Assembly: GCA_016926735.1 (NCBI GenBank)
Contig: JAFGOA010000160.1
Span: forward strand, 1-13,241
DNA: 13,241 nucleotides
Reading direction: 5' to 3'
Source of the DNA: Promethearchaeota archaeon
GTDB taxonomy: Archaea; Asgardarchaeota; Lokiarchaeia; Sigyniarchaeales; SOKP01
Below are positions 188 to 13,241 of the stretch, one piece after another (the stretch's first letter is position 1; each line of letters starts with the position of its first letter). The position numbers and the translations under genes were made by a program. The notes under the pieces are model-generated. The model was given only the letters and a program-made list of their open reading frames with translations, was not told the origin of the DNA and ran no database searches.

Positions 188-2848
188 ATGTCAACAGAAA
201 ATGATAAACATGTCTATGATTTTTCTGAAGGTAAAAAAGAGCTAAAACTTTTACTTGGCGGAAAAGGTGCTAACCTTGCAGAAATGACTAATATAGGGTT
301 AAATATACCTCAAGGTTTTACAATAACCACAGCAACATGTCTAAAATATTATGAAGATCCAAAAAAAATAATGGACGATATAAAATCAGATGTACTCGAT
401 GCTATAAAAAGATTAGAAAAAAAATATAATAAAAACTTTGGAGATAAAAAAAACCCATTATTGTTTAGTGTTCGCAGTGGAGCACCTATGTCAATGCCAG
501 GAATGATGGATACAGTATTAAATCTGGGCTTGAATGATGAAAGTGTTAAAGGTCTCGTTGAAGTGACCGATAATGAAAGATTCGCTTATGATTCTTATCG
601 AAGATTTATACAAATGTTTTCTGATGTTGTAATGGGAATTGAGTTAGACCATTTTGAAGAAATTTTAAATGCATATAAGGCTAAAAAAGGTGAAGATGCA
701 AAAGATACTGATTTAGATGTTAATGATTTGAAAAATATTATAGCAGAATATAAAACTTTATATCAAAAAGAGATAGGATCTCCATTCCCTCAAGAACCTC
801 AAATACAATTATTTAATGCAATAGAGGCAGTATTCAAATCTTGGAATAATAAAAGAGCTATAACATATAGAAGAATGAATAAAATTCCAAATTATGGCAC
901 TGCTGTTAATGTTCAAGTTATGGTATTTGGAAATAAAGGATGGAAATCGGGAACAGGGGTCGCTTTTACAAGAGATCCATCAACAGGAGAAAATAGAAAA
1001 TTCGGTGAATATTTAGCAAATGCTCAAGGAGAAGATGTTGTTGCTGGAATAAGAACTCCTAAAACTTTAGATGAGATGAAAGAAGAGTTCCCTAAAGTTC
1101 ATGATGAACTTTTTGAATTAATGGAAAAATTAGAAAATCATTATAGAGATATGCAAGATATCGAATTTACAATCGAAGATGGAGAATTATTTATCTTACA
1201 GACCCGAAATGGTAAAAGAACACCCTCAGCAGCAGTAAAAATTGCTGTTGATTTGGTTAAAGAAGGATTAATAACTAAAGAGCAAGCAATTATGAATATT
1301 GATGCGAATTCAATTTCAGATTTATTGTTTAAAAGTATTGATCCTAAAGCAGATGTTGCCGTTCTTGCTCAAGGTATTAATGCATCACCTGGAGCTGTAA
1401 CTGGAATAGCTATATTTGATTCAGATAGGGCAGAAGAACTCGCAACTAAAGAAAACATGGATGTTATTTTAGTAAGACCTCAAACAAAACCAGATGATGT
1501 TCATGGTTTATATGCTTCAGTAGGTGTTTTGACTCAGTTTGGCGGTAAGACATCTCACGCAGCAGTTGTAGCTAGAGGTATTGGAAAACCAGCAGTTGTA
1601 GGTGCCCAAAATGTCAAAATAGATCTAAAAAACAGACAATTTTCAGTAGATGATACGATTATCAAAGAGGGAGACTATATTACTATTGATGGCACTACTG
1701 GGAAAATAATAAAAGGACAAGTTCCATTAGTAGATCCGGAATTAAAAGGAGAATTTCTTGAGTTATTAGATATTGCAAGTGAAATAAAGAAACTAGGTGT
1801 AAGGGCAAATGCAGATACACCAACAGATGCTTCTAAAGCTCTTGAATTTGGTGCCCAAGGAATAGGACTTTGTCGAACAGAACATATGTTTATGGCCCAA
1901 GAACGATTACCTGTTGTACAACAAATGATAATGGCAAAATCTCAAGAAGAAAGAAAAAAAGCATTAGATAAAATATTACCAATGCAAAAAGGAGACTTTT
2001 ATGATATTTTCAAAATAATGAATGGTCTACCAGTAACTATTAGATTATTAGATCCTCCATTACATGAATTTCTACCTGATTACACTGAACTTATGTTGGA
2101 AGTGCAAAAACTTAAACTTACTAACTCAATAACTGATGAAGAACTTAAAGAAAAGGAGGAATTAATCCACACTATAAGAACTCTTCATGAAGAGAATCCT
2201 ATGATGGGTCTCAGAGGGTGTAGGTTAGGTATCACTTGGCCTGAAATTAATGAAATGCAAGTTAAAGCAATTTTTCAAGCTGCATGTGAATTAAAGAAAG
2301 AAGGTATTGATGTTAAACCAGAAGTTATGATTCCACTAGTAGGAATGCTCTCTGAATTGAAATTAGTGAAAGATCAATTAGTTAAAATCGCTAAAGAAGT
2401 CATAGATAGCTATAATGTGGCTTTAGATTATAAATTTGGAACAATGATTGAAATACCAAGAGCTGCTTTAGTTGCTGATACAATTGCTTCTGAAGCTGAA
2501 TTCTTTTCATTTGGAACAAATGATTTAACACAAATGACTTTTGGATTTAGTAGAGATGATGCAGAAGGCAAATTTCTCCCAATTTATCTTGAAAATGGTA
2601 TAATGAAAGAAAATCCTTTTGAATGTTTAGATCAAGAAGGTGTAGGTCAGTTAATGCAGCTTGCTATTCAAAAAGGGAGAGGCACCAGACCTGATCTTAA
2701 ATGTGGGATCTGTGGAGAACATGGTGGAGAGCCAAGTTCAATCGATTTTGCTCATAGAATTGGGTTAAATTATGTTTCATGCTCACCTTATAGAATTCCC
2801 GTAGCTCGAATTGCTGCTGCTCAAACATATATAAGAAATAAGGAATAA
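188..2848 (+). CDS. ppdK: Pyruvate, phosphate dikinase
   Basis: 886 aa. Motifs: N-terminal LLGGKGANLAEM, SVRSGAPMSMPGMMDT, AQGEDVVAGIRTP, phospho-His motif GGKTSHAAVVARG, GIGLCRTEHMF, and C-terminal FSFGTNDLTQ / GICGEHGG. AAAGGA at 175-180 upstream. Confidence 0.98.
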   Translation: MSTENDKHVYDFSEGKKELKLLLGGKGANLAEMTNIGLNIPQGFTITTATCLKYYEDPKKIMDDIKSDVLDAIKRLEKKYNKNFGDKKNPLLFSVRSGAPMSMPGMMDTVLNLGLNDESVKGLVEVTDNERFAYDSYRRFIQMFSDVVMGIELDHFEEILNAYKAKKGEDAKDTDLDVNDLKNIIAEYKTLYQKEIGSPFPQEPQIQLFNAIEAVFKSWNNKRAITYRRMNKIPNYGTAVNVQVMVFGNKGWKSGTGVAFTRDPSTGENRKFGEYLANAQGEDVVAGIRTPKTLDEMKEEFPKVHDELFELMEKLENHYRDMQDIEFTIEDGELFILQTRNGKRTPSAAVKIAVDLVKEGLITKEQAIMNIDANSISDLLFKSIDPKADVAVLAQGINASPGAVTGIAIFDSDRAEELATKENMDVILVRPQTKPDDVHGLYASVGVLTQFGGKTSHAAVVARGIGKPAVVGAQNVKIDLKNRQFSVDDTIIKEGDYITIDGTTGKIIKGQVPLVDPELKGEFLELLDIASEIKKLGVRANADTPTDASKALEFGAQGIGLCRTEHMFMAQERLPVVQQMIMAKSQEERKKALDKILPMQKGDFYDIFKIMNGLPVTIRLLDPPLHEFLPDYTELMLEVQKLKLTNSITDEELKEKEELIHTIRTLHEENPMMGLRGCRLGITWPEINEMQVKAIFQAACELKKEGIDVKPEVMIPLVGMLSELKLVKDQLVKIAKEVIDSYNVALDYKFGTMIEIPRAALVADTIASEAEFFSFGTNDLTQMTFGFSRDDAEGKFLPIYLENGIMKENPFECLDQEGVGQLMQLAIQKGRGTRPDLKCGICGEHGGEPSSIDFAHRIGLNYVSCSPYRIPVARIAAAQTYIRNKE

Positions 2849-2849
2849 T

Positions 2850-2900
2850 TGCTTATTTTCATAATCTTATTTTTTTATTTTTTTTATCTAAAATTTTTAT
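2850..2900 (+). terminator. Probable archaeal T-rich terminator region after ppdK
   Basis: Consecutive T-tracts (TTATTTTTTTATTTTTTTTA) shortly after the TAA. This is weak evidence in such an AT-rich genome. Confidence 0.35.
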
Positions 2901-3019
2901 TATTTTAAATAGACTTTAAATAGGTTTTATTGTCGTTAAACCTTGATATTTATTAGAAAAGAAAATATTTTATCAATTTCTGTATTTTATAAAATATATA
3001 GAATTAGAGATGAATATAA

Positions 3020-4120
3020 TTGACATTATCTTTAGATGAAAAAATAGAATTACTGAAAGAAGTCGGTAAAGAAATTATTAATGAAAATGAATTAAGAGAT
3101 ATGATTAAGTGGAAAGTTGAAAATAGCAAAGAAATTATTGCCTATGATGGATTTGAGCCTTCGGGTAACATTCATATTGCGCAAGGACTTTTGAGAGCTA
3201 TTAATGTAAATAAATTAATAAAAGCAGGAATAAAATTTAAATTTCTAATAGCAGATTGGCATGCAGCAGCAAATCAAAAATTTGGAGGAAATCTTGACGT
3301 AATTAAAAAAGTAGGAGATTTCTTTATAGAAGTTTGGAAAGCTTGTGAAATGGATCTTAGTAAAGTTGAATTCATTTATGCTTCAGATATAGTTAAAGAT
3401 CCAAAATATTGGGAATATGTACTTAAAATTTCTATTAATAGTACTTTAAATAGAATTATCAGATGCACTCAAATTATGGGCAGAAGTGAAAGTGATGTTT
3501 TGACTTCCTCCCAAATTCTCTATCCTCTTATGCAAGCTGCTGATGTATTCTATCTAAATATAGATATTTGTCAATTAGGATTAGATCAACGAAAGGTAAA
3601 TATGCTTGCTAGAGAGGTATCAAAAGTATTTAATCTTCCTAAACCTATTTCTATTCACCATCATATGTTAATGGGACTTACCCAACCGCCAGAAACAGAT
3701 GTATCTGGTACAGATAGAGTAATCCAATTAAAAATGTCAAAATCTAATCCCGATTCTGCAATTTTTATGCTTGATACCTCCGAAGATATTTCACGGAAAA
3801 TTAAAAAAGCCTATTGCCCTGCAAAAGAAATAAATGAAAATCCAATTCTAGAATATTGTAAATATATTATTTTTGAACGAATTGATACTTTTAAAATTGA
3901 ACGACCAGAGAAATTCGGTGGAAATATAGAATTTGATAATTATTCAGATTTAGAAATCGATTACTCGCAAGGTAATATTCATCCTATGGATTTAAAAAAA
4001 GCAGTTATTAAACATTTAGATAATCTTATCAAACCTATCAGGGAACATTTTGAAAAAAATAAAAACGCAAAGGAACTGTATGATTTTGTAAAAAAAGAAT
4101 ATATAAAGTATAATTCATAG
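3020..4120 (+). CDS. tyrS: Tyrosine--tRNA ligase, archaeal/eukaryotic type
   Basis: YDGFEPSGNIHIAQG (HIGH equivalent), IADWHA, YPLMQAAD, QLGLDQRKVNMLARE, KMSKS, KIKKAYCP, HPMDLK. TTG start directly after an in-frame TAA, with SD-like GAGATGA just upstream. Confidence 0.96.
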   Translation: MTLSLDEKIELLKEVGKEIINENELRDMIKWKVENSKEIIAYDGFEPSGNIHIAQGLLRAINVNKLIKAGIKFKFLIADWHAAANQKFGGNLDVIKKVGDFFIEVWKACEMDLSKVEFIYASDIVKDPKYWEYVLKISINSTLNRIIRCTQIMGRSESDVLTSSQILYPLMQAADVFYLNIDICQLGLDQRKVNMLAREVSKVFNLPKPISIHHHMLMGLTQPPETDVSGTDRVIQLKMSKSNPDSAIFMLDTSEDISRKIKKAYCPAKEINENPILEYCKYIIFERIDTFKIERPEKFGGNIEFDNYSDLEIDYSQGNIHPMDLKKAVIKHLDNLIKPIREHFEKNKNAKELYDFVKKEYIKYNS

Positions 4121-11730: not shown

Positions 11731-13146
11731 ATGGAAAAATGTGACTTAGTGGTTATGAAATTTGGTGGATCTTGTTTACAAGATATTGAATCATTTTCTC
11801 AAACTACCAAAATTATTAAAAAATATCTAAAGGAATCAAAAATCATTATTGTAACTTCTGCTTTTAAAGGTATCACCGATAAATTAATAGATTTTTATAA
11901 TAAATCTTGTAAGGATGTTAATTCATGCGCAGAGGTTATTGAAGATATTAAACAAATTCATTTGAAATTTATAAATGATAATATCAACAAAGAAACACCA
12001 GAGTATAAAGATTCTTTAGAATTTTTTGAATTGAATCTAAAAGATCTTGTTCAATTAGGAAGGGTCATTCGCCTTTTACGTCCAAGCTTAGACCTTCAAG
12101 ATTTGATAATATCTTATGGAGAAAAACTAAGTACCTACATTGTAAATCAATATTTAAATTCTATAGGAATTTCCTCAAAATTTCTCTCTTCTGATGAATT
12201 AATATTAACTGATAATAATTTTGGGAATGCACTTCCTTTATTGGAAGAAACTGAATCTATTATACAAAAGAGACTATCACCAATTATTAAATCTGATACT
12301 AATCATATTATATGTGTTACGGGTTTTTATGGATCTACTAAGGATAAGAAAATAACTACACTAGGTCGTGGAGGGACAGATTTAACAGCAGCTATAATGG
12401 CTTATAGTCTTTCTTCATTATTTAAATGTAAGGTAATATATTGGAAAGATGTTCAAGGGTTTTTAGATGCTGATCCACGAATAGCAGAACAAGCTTCTCT
12501 ATTACATCAAATATCATATTTAGAAGCAAAAGAACTCGCCTTTTTCGGCTCTAAAGTATTACATCCTCTTTGTCTGGATGTAAATGAAAAAGGGAATATT
12601 CCTTCTGAGATACGACCATTTAATGATCCAGAATCTAATGATTATACAAAAATTACAAAAGAAATAATAAAAGGAGAAAGAATTATCAAAGCAATTACTT
12701 CTATTCAAAGATTATCGATGGTAACTATTGAAAGTGGTACAATGATTTCTTTACCTGGAACTGTGGCAAAACTTTTTAATTTATTAGCTGAAAATAATAT
12801 AAATATAAAATTTATTTCACAAAGCTCCTCTGAAAATAATATTACAATTGGTATTGATTTTGAGGATTCTATGAAAATAAGCTATCTCTTAAGAAACTCG
12901 GATTGGTTTGGTAAACAATGGTTTAGCATAAAAATTGATAACGACATATCTTTAATTGCTGTAATCGGTGCTGCTATGCTCCATACTCCTGGTATCGCGG
13001 GTAAAATATTTACAGTGCTTGGAGAACAAAATATTAATATAAGAGCAATTTCACAAGGATCCTCTGAACTTAATATTACGATTATAATTGAAAGAGATCA
13101 TTGTAAAAAAGCTGTAAATATATTATATAATGCTTTTATCAGTTGA
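11731..13146 (+). CDS. lysC: Aspartate kinase with two C-terminal ACT domains
   Basis: VMKFGGS, VTSA, SYGEKLS, TGF, TTLGRGGTDLTAA, DADPRI, ELAFFGSKVLHP. ACT motifs: MISLPGTVAKLF..ISQSSSE and MLHTPGIAGKIF..ISQGSSE. Confidence 0.96.
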   Translation: MEKCDLVVMKFGGSCLQDIESFSQTTKIIKKYLKESKIIIVTSAFKGITDKLIDFYNKSCKDVNSCAEVIEDIKQIHLKFINDNINKETPEYKDSLEFFELNLKDLVQLGRVIRLLRPSLDLQDLIISYGEKLSTYIVNQYLNSIGISSKFLSSDELILTDNNFGNALPLLEETESIIQKRLSPIIKSDTNHIICVTGFYGSTKDKKITTLGRGGTDLTAAIMAYSLSSLFKCKVIYWKDVQGFLDADPRIAEQASLLHQISYLEAKELAFFGSKVLHPLCLDVNEKGNIPSEIRPFNDPESNDYTKITKEIIKGERIIKAITSIQRLSMVTIESGTMISLPGTVAKLFNLLAENNINIKFISQSSSENNITIGIDFEDSMKISYLLRNSDWFGKQWFSIKIDNDISLIAVIGAAMLHTPGIAGKIFTVLGEQNINIRAISQGSSELNITIIIERDHCKKAVNILYNAFIS

Positions 13147-13241
13147 AATACCATTCCCTGAAGGAAATGGATTCGTAGTCCCTATGATTCAATTACAATC
13201 GTAGACACTACAGGATAGTTCTCTACCCTTATATCATCAAT
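13143..13241 (-). mobile_element. Right end of an IS200/IS605 (IS1341/TnpB-type) element with omegaRNA-like structure; probably continues past the window edge
   Basis: Minus strand ...GAAT-CCATTTCC-TTCA-GGGAATGG-TAT-TTCAA: a GAAT guide tetranucleotide, subterminal hairpin and TCAA terminus, as at the IS608 right end. Preceded by two more hairpins. GC content is visibly higher than the surrounding intergenic DNA. Confidence 0.75.

Follow-up and report, generated by a model that had tools for sequence, protein, structure and literature searches.

What are the three abutting hairpins that close this archaeal contig, immediately after lysC: a regulatory structure belonging to that gene, or the end of an element that has inserted there? 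The window, by which we mean the whole stretch of DNA analyzed, is an entire contig of 13,241 nucleotides (nt) (contig C210 of the genome that we refer to as G000), and the stretch in question lies at the contig's end. An earlier note, made from the sequence alone, had interpreted positions 13143 to 13241 of the minus strand as the right end of an IS200/IS605 element with a scaffold resembling a TnpB omegaRNA. The repeat boundary, the presence of tnpB in sister copies, the covariation of the hairpins and the end motifs all support this interpretation, and we consider it very likely that the stretch is the right end of a non-autonomous, IS608-like IS200/IS605 element that carries tnpB and that sits at the last codon of lysC. 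Of the element, the 99 nt from 13241 to 13143 on the minus strand are visible before the contig stops.

We searched for the element in 41 genomes, namely G000, which is estimated to be 99.3% complete (repeats often remain unassembled), and 40 relatives. Among the relatives, G002 is a sister species of G000 and G003 is a congener whose lysC DNA is 96% identical to that of G000. Matches were found in 10 of the 41 genomes, and the three other species of the genus are all among these 10. Twenty-nine copies from G000, G001, G002, G003 and G006 were compared in an alignment (A1), from which a covariance model (R1) was built. The earlier suggestion that the host is probably an Asgard archaeon holds, the nearest named lysC homologs being metagenome-assembled genomes (MAGs) labeled Lokiarchaeota (the top match, at 85% identity) and Promethearchaeota, with identities of at most 85%. 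The features discussed below are as follows.

13143 to 13241, minus strand: very probably the visible right end of an IS608-like IS200/IS605 element, 99 nt, and the predicted 3' part of its omegaRNA scaffold (repeat boundary; 106.2 bits with R1; covariation)
13182 to 13241, minus strand: last 19 codons of tnpB and the TAG stop codon (13184 to 13182), 100% identical to residues 78 to 96 of the tail encoded on contig C132; overlaps H1 and most of H2
13212 to 13229, minus strand: hairpin H1, a stem-1-like scaffold element of 7 base pairs (bp), one of them G-U, with an AGAA loop (folding; 91.0% of alignment cells paired, changes on both sides in 2 of 7 pairs)
13175 to 13211, minus strand: hairpin H2, an outer stem of 5 bp and an inner stem of eight positions with one C-A mismatch (folding; changes on both sides in 6 of 13 pairs)
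13171 to 13174, minus strand: GAAT, directly 5' of the terminal hairpin, counterpart of the IS608 right-end DNA guide GR (A, A and T invariant in 29 of 29 copies)
13151 to 13170, minus strand: hairpin H3, 8 bp including one G-U, with a UUCA loop at 13159 to 13162 (-20 to -17) (changes on both sides in 3 of 8 pairs)
13143 to 13147, minus strand: TTCAA, the end of the element, in which TCAA (13146 to 13143) is the predicted right cleavage site (identity among copies stops here; empty site in G003; the IS608 right cleavage site CR is TCAA)
13123 to 13142, minus strand: flank and predicted omegaRNA guide, antisense to the last lysC codons (a sequence unique to the window copy)
11731 to 13146, plus strand: lysC, encoding an aspartate kinase of 471 residues (homologs at 83-97% identity are also 471 residues long)

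A repeated element end at the last codon of lysC

The window copy is one of three in G000, the others being C132:233-331 (98% identical) and C127:6450-6533 (99%, at a contig end). Beyond TTCAA the flanks of the three are unrelated to one another. Indeed, similarity ends at the same place after TTCAA in each of the 29 copies compared, as predicted in the earlier note, which had anticipated copies whose identity stops at TCAA.

The insertion itself can be read by comparison with G003, in which the lysC ortholog ends ...GCTTTTATCAG|GTAAAAATATAAT where the window has ...GCTTTTATCAG|TTGAAATACC; in other words, the junction that reads ...TATCAG|GTAAAAAT in G003 reads ...TATCAG|TTGAAATACC in the window. 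On the strand of the element, the empty site is ...ATATTTTTAC|CTGATAAAAGC. The element therefore lies directly 3' of TTTAC, and the flank at its right end, which TTTAC immediately precedes in the empty site, is the sequence that once followed TTTAC. The insertion point falls between the second and third bases of the last lysC codon, and on the plus strand the element supplies the last base of that codon together with the stop codon: G003 ends ...ATC AGG TAA and the window ...ATC AGT TGA, with the result that AGG (Arg) has become AGT (Ser), the element's own bases now form the stop codon (TGA instead of TAA), and the length of the protein stays at 471 residues.

A second copy in G000 can be closed over two contig ends, C62 (...TTTTTAC|CATATTTAGAGC...) and C132 (...GTTCAA|TAATGGC). 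In G003 the corresponding site on contig C358 reads ...TTTTTAC|TAATGGC without interruption, and there was therefore no target duplication at this copy. Empty sites were thus recovered for two of the three G000 copies, both of the form TTTAC|flank and both without duplication; for the third, on C127, none of the matches in relatives reached the junction. The reverse case also occurs, with the site on G003:C434 occupied and that on G000:C109 empty (...TTTTTTAC|CGAGG). Together with the left ends of short derivatives in G002 (described below), of which 8 of 11 are directly preceded by TTTAC, the empty sites identify TTTAC as the target motif. The alternative raised in the earlier note, in which TTGAT at 13240 to 13236 would be a target motif or boundary and the whole a miniature element of 93 bp, fails on several grounds: TTGAT lies inside I-D-D codons, homology runs past it upstream in the sister copies, and the empty sites give TTTAC. 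At the occupied site on G003:C434 (460-470), the sequence before the left end is TTTAT, and the empty site at G000:C109:11415-11425 has TTTAC; the former may be a mutation of the target motif, one that would block both excision and re-cutting.

That the element carries tnpB is apparent from the copies that extend further than the window does. Contig C132 runs 232 nt upstream past the point at which the window stops and contains an open frame of 96 residues, including a zinc ribbon (CPIC...CPHC) and DRD (the RuvC-III Asp), that ends in the same 19 residues as the frame in the window (IDDIRVENYPVVSTIVIES*, 13241 to 13182), which the earlier note had taken to be a possible TnpB tail. On G003:C434 the same DNA (97% identical over 332 nt) stands behind a complete tnpB of 416 residues, the product of which ends ...IDDIRVETYPVVSTIVIES. 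A tnpB gene beyond the repeat, which the earlier note had proposed to look for, is thus seen in part in a sister copy and in full in a congener.

A scaffold-like fold at the 3' end of tnpB

Folding the minus strand with ViennaRNA gave exactly H1, H2 and H3, with a minimum free energy of -32.3 kcal/mol (z = -3.84; 1 of 200 shuffled sequences was as good), and so recovered the three hairpins where the earlier note had placed them by inspection. The plus strand folds less well (-22.6 kcal/mol, z = -2.70), with H1 and H3 both broken. The strand asymmetry attributed to G-U pairs, according to which H1 and H3 close fully on the minus strand alone, is therefore real. H2 also contains small internal loops, and UAU separates H3 from the terminal UUCAA, placing the foot of H3 3 nt from TCAA. 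A scan of positions 12000 to 13241 against Rfam (E <= 10) returned six chance-level matches, none of them within 13143 to 13241, and there is no tRNA in the window.

The three hairpins comprise 28 pairs, and across A1 86.5% of alignment cells are paired, with changes on both sides in 11 of the 28 pairs; in H3, for example, a C-G pair becomes U-A in nine copies. The covariation score is 0.201, compared with 0.127 +/- 0.008 for shuffled alignments and at most 0.099 when the partners are slid, and none of 500 shuffles reached the observed value, a count that is not a probability, the copies being related to one another. Searching G000 with R1 yielded 16 places at E <= 0.01. Besides that on C132, four of these (C160:9323-9423, C151:17388-17488, C71:579-703 and C173:2526-2626) lie 24-40 nt downstream of matches to PF07282, on the same strand, next to diverged TnpB genes: in a comparison of TnpB tails, those encoded on C160, C151 and C173 were only 33-37% identical, and C71 gave no match. 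In these diverged paralogs the arms of H3 differ in sequence yet remain complementary, and GAAT and UAGUUCAA are fixed. These matches are the best independent evidence that the fold accompanies the 3' ends of tnpB genes. Nine of the 16 places have no adjoining TnpB match and may be derivatives or relics.

Both position and structure, as judged from the covariation and the R1 matches, are those of an omegaRNA scaffold, that is, a folded RNA that reaches from within the 3' part of tnpB to the transposon end. We infer that the scaffold is transcribed and that the transcript extends 3' into the flank; the guide predicted in the earlier note, 13142 to 13123, is indeed flank sequence. A solved scaffold with which it can be compared is that of ISDra2, which in the part of PMC10097598 available to us is described as an RNA of 116 nt that forms four stems and one pseudoknot, its UUUA tetraloop lying at -20 to -17 and the 3' arms of stems 2 and 3a at -35 to -32 and -48 to -42, respectively. 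Here the H3 loop (UUCA in the window, UUUA in most copies) likewise occupies -20 to -17, UUC is found at -5 to -3, and the 3' arms of H2, at -37 to -33 and -47 to -40, lie near those of ISDra2 stems 2 and 3a. As in ISDra2, the omegaRNA would overlap the 3' end of tnpB and run to the right end; unlike in ISDra2, stem 3 is shorter and the stem-1-like hairpin of this subfamily has a loop of 4 nt.

The pseudoknot drawn in the earlier note, between UUGAA at the tip of H2 and the terminal UUCAA, is possible but finds no support in covariation. Although 91.9% of cells can pair, none of its five pairs covaries, the pairing is broken in the three copies from G006, two of the five loop bases are also used at the top of H2, and in the paralog on C151 the H2 loop lacks UUGA. 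In ISDra2, -5U to -3C are paired with the G-A-A of the stem-1 loop (PMC10097598, same part), and the equivalent pairing here, of GAA in the H1 loop with UUC at -5 to -3, is possible in 92.8% of cells. This alternative can show no real covariation because the tail, which is also the cleavage site, is invariant. The 4-nt loop of H1 makes the pairing sterically doubtful in this subfamily; two paralogs have 7-nt H1 loops that contain GAA. RNAalifold also pairs GAAU with GUUC.

The TnpB protein and its RuvC site

The 416-residue TnpB of G003 matches PF01385 (63.4 bits), PF07282 (74.1 bits) and the NCBIfam model guided_TnpB (NF040570; 167.7 bits against a cutoff of 100). Its AlphaFold2 model has a mean predicted local distance difference test (pLDDT) score of 85.8, and the structures closest to it are those of Cas12f, ISFba1 TnpB, ISDra2 TnpB and Fanzor2. 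Foldseek indicates that the protein shares the TnpB fold of ISDra2 (8H1J / 8EXA), with target-normalized template modeling (TM) scores of 0.71-0.74 (0.74 for 8h1j), at a sequence identity of 15-17%. Relatives at 56-69% identity are labeled Promethearchaeota and Helarchaeota, and more distant ones Odinarchaeota, Jordarchaeaceae, Nitrososphaerota, Bathyarchaeota and Caldivirga.

Unlike ISDra2 TnpB, the protein has Gly at the canonical RuvC-II Glu (G295), as do 34 of 35 aligned relatives, and alignment to the structure of Cas12f places the query's 'ilGNLkgi' under 'iENLegi'. D202, E348 and D381 are invariant in all 35, E348 lying in the motif NEAYTS of the G003 protein. A survey of TnpB diversity (Altae-Tran et al. 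2023, PMC10691335, in the part available to us) describes large groups in which the RuvC-II Glu has become Gly and a compensating Glu is present, judges these sites rearranged rather than inactivated, and reports several of the rearranged branches as nearly exclusive to archaea. The protein studied here resembles the 'RIIr' branches of that survey in pairing the Glu-to-Gly change with another conserved Glu, and its D202/G295/E348/D381 pattern is consistent with the published rearranged sites. The same text treats the activity of the relocated-glutamate class as open.

TnpB genes are numerous in G000, in which we counted 17 matches to PF07282, 15 of them over the cutoff, and which therefore holds many TnpB lineages. 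The body of this particular tnpB was not found in the G000 assembly, and no contig-end overlaps with the start of C132 were found. The shortest contig of G000 being 2,507 nt, a repeat that had collapsed into a contig of about 1.2 kb may have been dropped, which would explain the absence. The sequencing run of the sample that probably yielded G000 (run X1) contains contigs of the 5' half of tnpB at a word depth of about 75, as well as a contig of 2,216 nt, at depth 17, that joins the right end to the window's flank; for the interpretation that we favor this is weak evidence, depth not being copy number. Scanning genome contigs with the 416-residue TnpB returned only five loci, all in the congener. 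The closest TnpB in the databases (P0001) was considered as this genome's copy and rejected, its agreement with the tail being 89 of 95 residues. The study that produced X1 also includes two metatranscriptome runs, and these contained no element sequence, a result that is uninformative on expression; of the 22 sequencing runs listed, none that contains the element is on record as RNA.

Mobilization, derivatives and competing explanations

The element's ends are those of IS608 from Helicobacter pylori, a member of the IS605 group. The IS608 motifs given in the part of PMC5934647 available to us are TTAC (left cleavage site, CL), AAAG (left guide, GL), TCAA (CR) and GAAT (GR); all four are identical to those found here, TTAC being the 3' part of the target, and the earlier note was thus right to recognize GAAT/TCAA as the IS608 right-end pair. 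As in IS608, there are subterminal imperfect hairpins at both ends, and insertion occurs 3' of the target without duplication. In particular, the right end has the traits expected of the IS200/IS605 family, namely a hairpin near the end, a tip motif with a guide tetranucleotide, a target of 4-5 nt that is not duplicated, and no terminal inverted repeats. By analogy, H3 would have two roles: in DNA it is the right-end subterminal imperfect palindrome, the putative site at which TnpA binds the single strand, and in the predicted omegaRNA it is the stem next to the guide. Unlike IS608, the element has tnpB only and no tnpA in cis, uses the five-base target TTTAC, resides in an Asgard-like host, and encodes a TnpB with a relocated RuvC-II glutamate.

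Left ends were recovered from other copies. AAAG stands directly 5' of the left-end hairpin in derivatives in G002, in G001:C93 and in G002:C109, the last of which bears tnpA and has the same architecture: TTTAC, about 15 nt, AGAAAG, a hairpin with a TTTA loop, and ATGAAT. In G002:C109:12380-15175 (L048), positions 1320-2590 form an autonomous-looking element in which a frame for a 154-residue Y1 TnpA is followed by a different TnpB, the contig ending before the right end. A TnpA of this kind is, by analogy, the likely mobilizer of the element at lysC; matches to the Y1 TnpA family (PF01797) are present in two of the three congeners and in 11 of the 41 genomes. Eleven loci in G002 (L027-L037, for example L028, L029 and L030) are protein-less derivatives of about 225 nt, 8 of which have an intact left end. 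They are built as TTTAC|CATAATAAC...AAAG-hairpin-ATGAAT, a short linker, and a complete H1-H3 scaffold that ends GTTCAA.

Taken with what has been described for related systems, these features suggest how the element might operate. It would have inserted as single-stranded DNA directly 3' of TTTAC, with no target duplication, after a Y1 (HUH) TnpA bound and cut the H3 structure flanked by GAAT and TCAA. Transcribed with the 3' end of tnpB, H1-H3 would serve as an omegaRNA scaffold of about 105 nt and the next 16-20 nt or so (13142 to 13123) as its guide. According to the model in PMC10055086 (Meers et al., a preprint, in the part available to us), TnpA would excise the top strand and reseal TTTAC to the flank, TnpB with its flank-guided omegaRNA would read the same TTTAC and cut the resealed donor joint, and repair from the sister copy or chromosome would restore the element. 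That model was developed for the palindrome-associated transposable elements (PATEs) and tnpB-only ISGst elements of Geobacillus stearothermophilus, in which non-autonomous copies share their ends with one tnpA-bearing element, TnpA and TnpB have a target-adjacent motif (TAM) in common, and protein-less derivatives keep the omegaRNA. The G002 derivatives and G002:C109 show a comparable arrangement, in which the shared motif would be TTTAC rather than the TTGAT of ISDra2. Unlike the Geobacillus elements, those described here have an archaeal host, are unrelated in sequence, and are known from sequence alone.

Several observations weigh against the interpretation that we favor. The tnpB gene is not seen at the lysC locus, the contig ending 99 nt into the element, and the left-end junction of the window copy was not found in G000 when we searched with the DNA and the proteins that follow lysC in G003. 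(In G003, L021 (contig C416), positions 1630-3129, carries a gene of 413 residues tail-to-tail with lysC. Neither its DNA nor its protein has a counterpart in the G000 assembly, so that the sequence beyond the insertion must be either unassembled or rearranged there.) PF01797 has no match in G000, and the nearest tnpA genes in congeners stand beside a different tnpB. The window copy has U at -6 (window 13148; GGUAUUUCAA) where 25 of the 28 other aligned copies have G, and the -6 base of ISDra2 takes part in the pseudoknot (PMC10097598, same part). For H3, covariation cannot tell a role in DNA, as a TnpA-binding site, from a role in RNA. Finally, with Gly at the RuvC-II Glu in 34 of 35 relatives, nuclease activity would depend on the proposed relocated glutamate.

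How do other explanations account for the hairpins? That they are a terminator or regulatory structure of lysC might be supposed because they begin right at its stop codon, and the earlier note had named their conservation downstream of lysC as the finding that would overturn its proposal. We consider this explanation refuted: the hairpins are absent downstream of lysC in all five relatives in which we looked (G003, G002, G001, G005 and G006), the same sequence occurs fused to tnpB at unrelated loci, and the fold is better on the strand opposite lysC. A closer competitor is that the lysC copy is itself a tnpB-less derivative, either PATE- or MITE-like (miniature inverted-repeat transposable element) or internally deleted, that has kept no more than its ends and the omegaRNA scaffold and depends on both TnpB and TnpA in trans. 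The sister species G002 has at least eight such elements of about 225 nt, each with a TTTAC|CATAAT left end and a complete H1-H3, PATEs are described as often encoding omegaRNAs for use in trans (PMC10055086, same part), and nothing is visible upstream of the point where the contig stops. However, bases 13212 to 13241 (ATTGATGATATAAGG, encoding IDDIR) are the tnpB-coding version present on C132 and in all G003 copies, and not the ATTAATAATATTAGG of the G002 derivatives; moreover, short derivatives of this subfamily were seen in neither G000 nor G003, and contigs of the tnpB body occur at high depth in run X1. We therefore regard a tnpB-less copy at lysC as plausible but unlikely, and we infer that the window copy probably still carries the whole of tnpB.

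A further possibility is that the element is a relic, its TnpB no longer a nuclease and the RNA-protein pair able at most to bind DNA, in the manner of nuclease-dead TnpB derivatives. The Gly at the canonical Glu, on which the alignment to Cas12f agrees, speaks for this possibility; the invariance of D202, E348 and D381, and the judgment in the survey cited above that groups with a compensating glutamate are rearranged, speak against it. So too does the distribution of insertions: G000 has two that G003 lacks, G003 has one that G000 lacks, and the copies are 95-99% alike. Such differences between two genomes whose lysC DNA is 96% identical, together with near-identical copies, suggest recent mobility, and we consider the relic explanation very improbable. 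At the other extreme, the family might be active today in Asgard archaea of the Lokiarchaeota-like kind, its relocated-glutamate TnpB cutting TTTAC-flanked targets and the G002 derivatives keeping the 105-nt scaffold under selection as dispersed, trans-acting guides for one TnpB. This is a speculative proposal to which we assign little probability; if true, the set of guides would represent a step toward array-like storage of guides in an Asgard host.

In terms of its biology, the tnpB-carrying element at lysC is an ordinary selfish element, and public records already include annotated TnpB genes from these archaea. Its interest lies in how completely a TnpB element of an uncultured Asgard-like archaeon is delimited: the right end is placed to the base, the point where the left end begins is defined, the target is TTTAC, and covariation supports a scaffold of about 105 nt. 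Three sites also differ in occupancy between two close species. Together, this is enough for a heterologous test of what would be a compact nuclease of 416 residues with an AT-rich TAM and a relocated RuvC-II glutamate.

Some copies have been interrupted by other sequences. On G003:C434 (L016), at about 504-621, an insert of about 110 nt with inverted ends, bordered by TTTA on either side, divides the TTTA loop of the left-end hairpin. The insert resembles a different MITE, a homologous piece of which (85%) is found at G000:C167:2966-3073. We had considered the region G000:C167:2966-3105 as an IS200/IS605 miniature element in its own right and dropped it: by eye, it looks like an inverted-repeat MITE, its homolog on G003:C434 being inverted-ended (TAGTA... 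/ ...TACTG) and flanked by TTTA. At G000:C62:28304-28386, a sequence starting CAGTAC breaks into the left end at that same loop, shortly before the contig stops.

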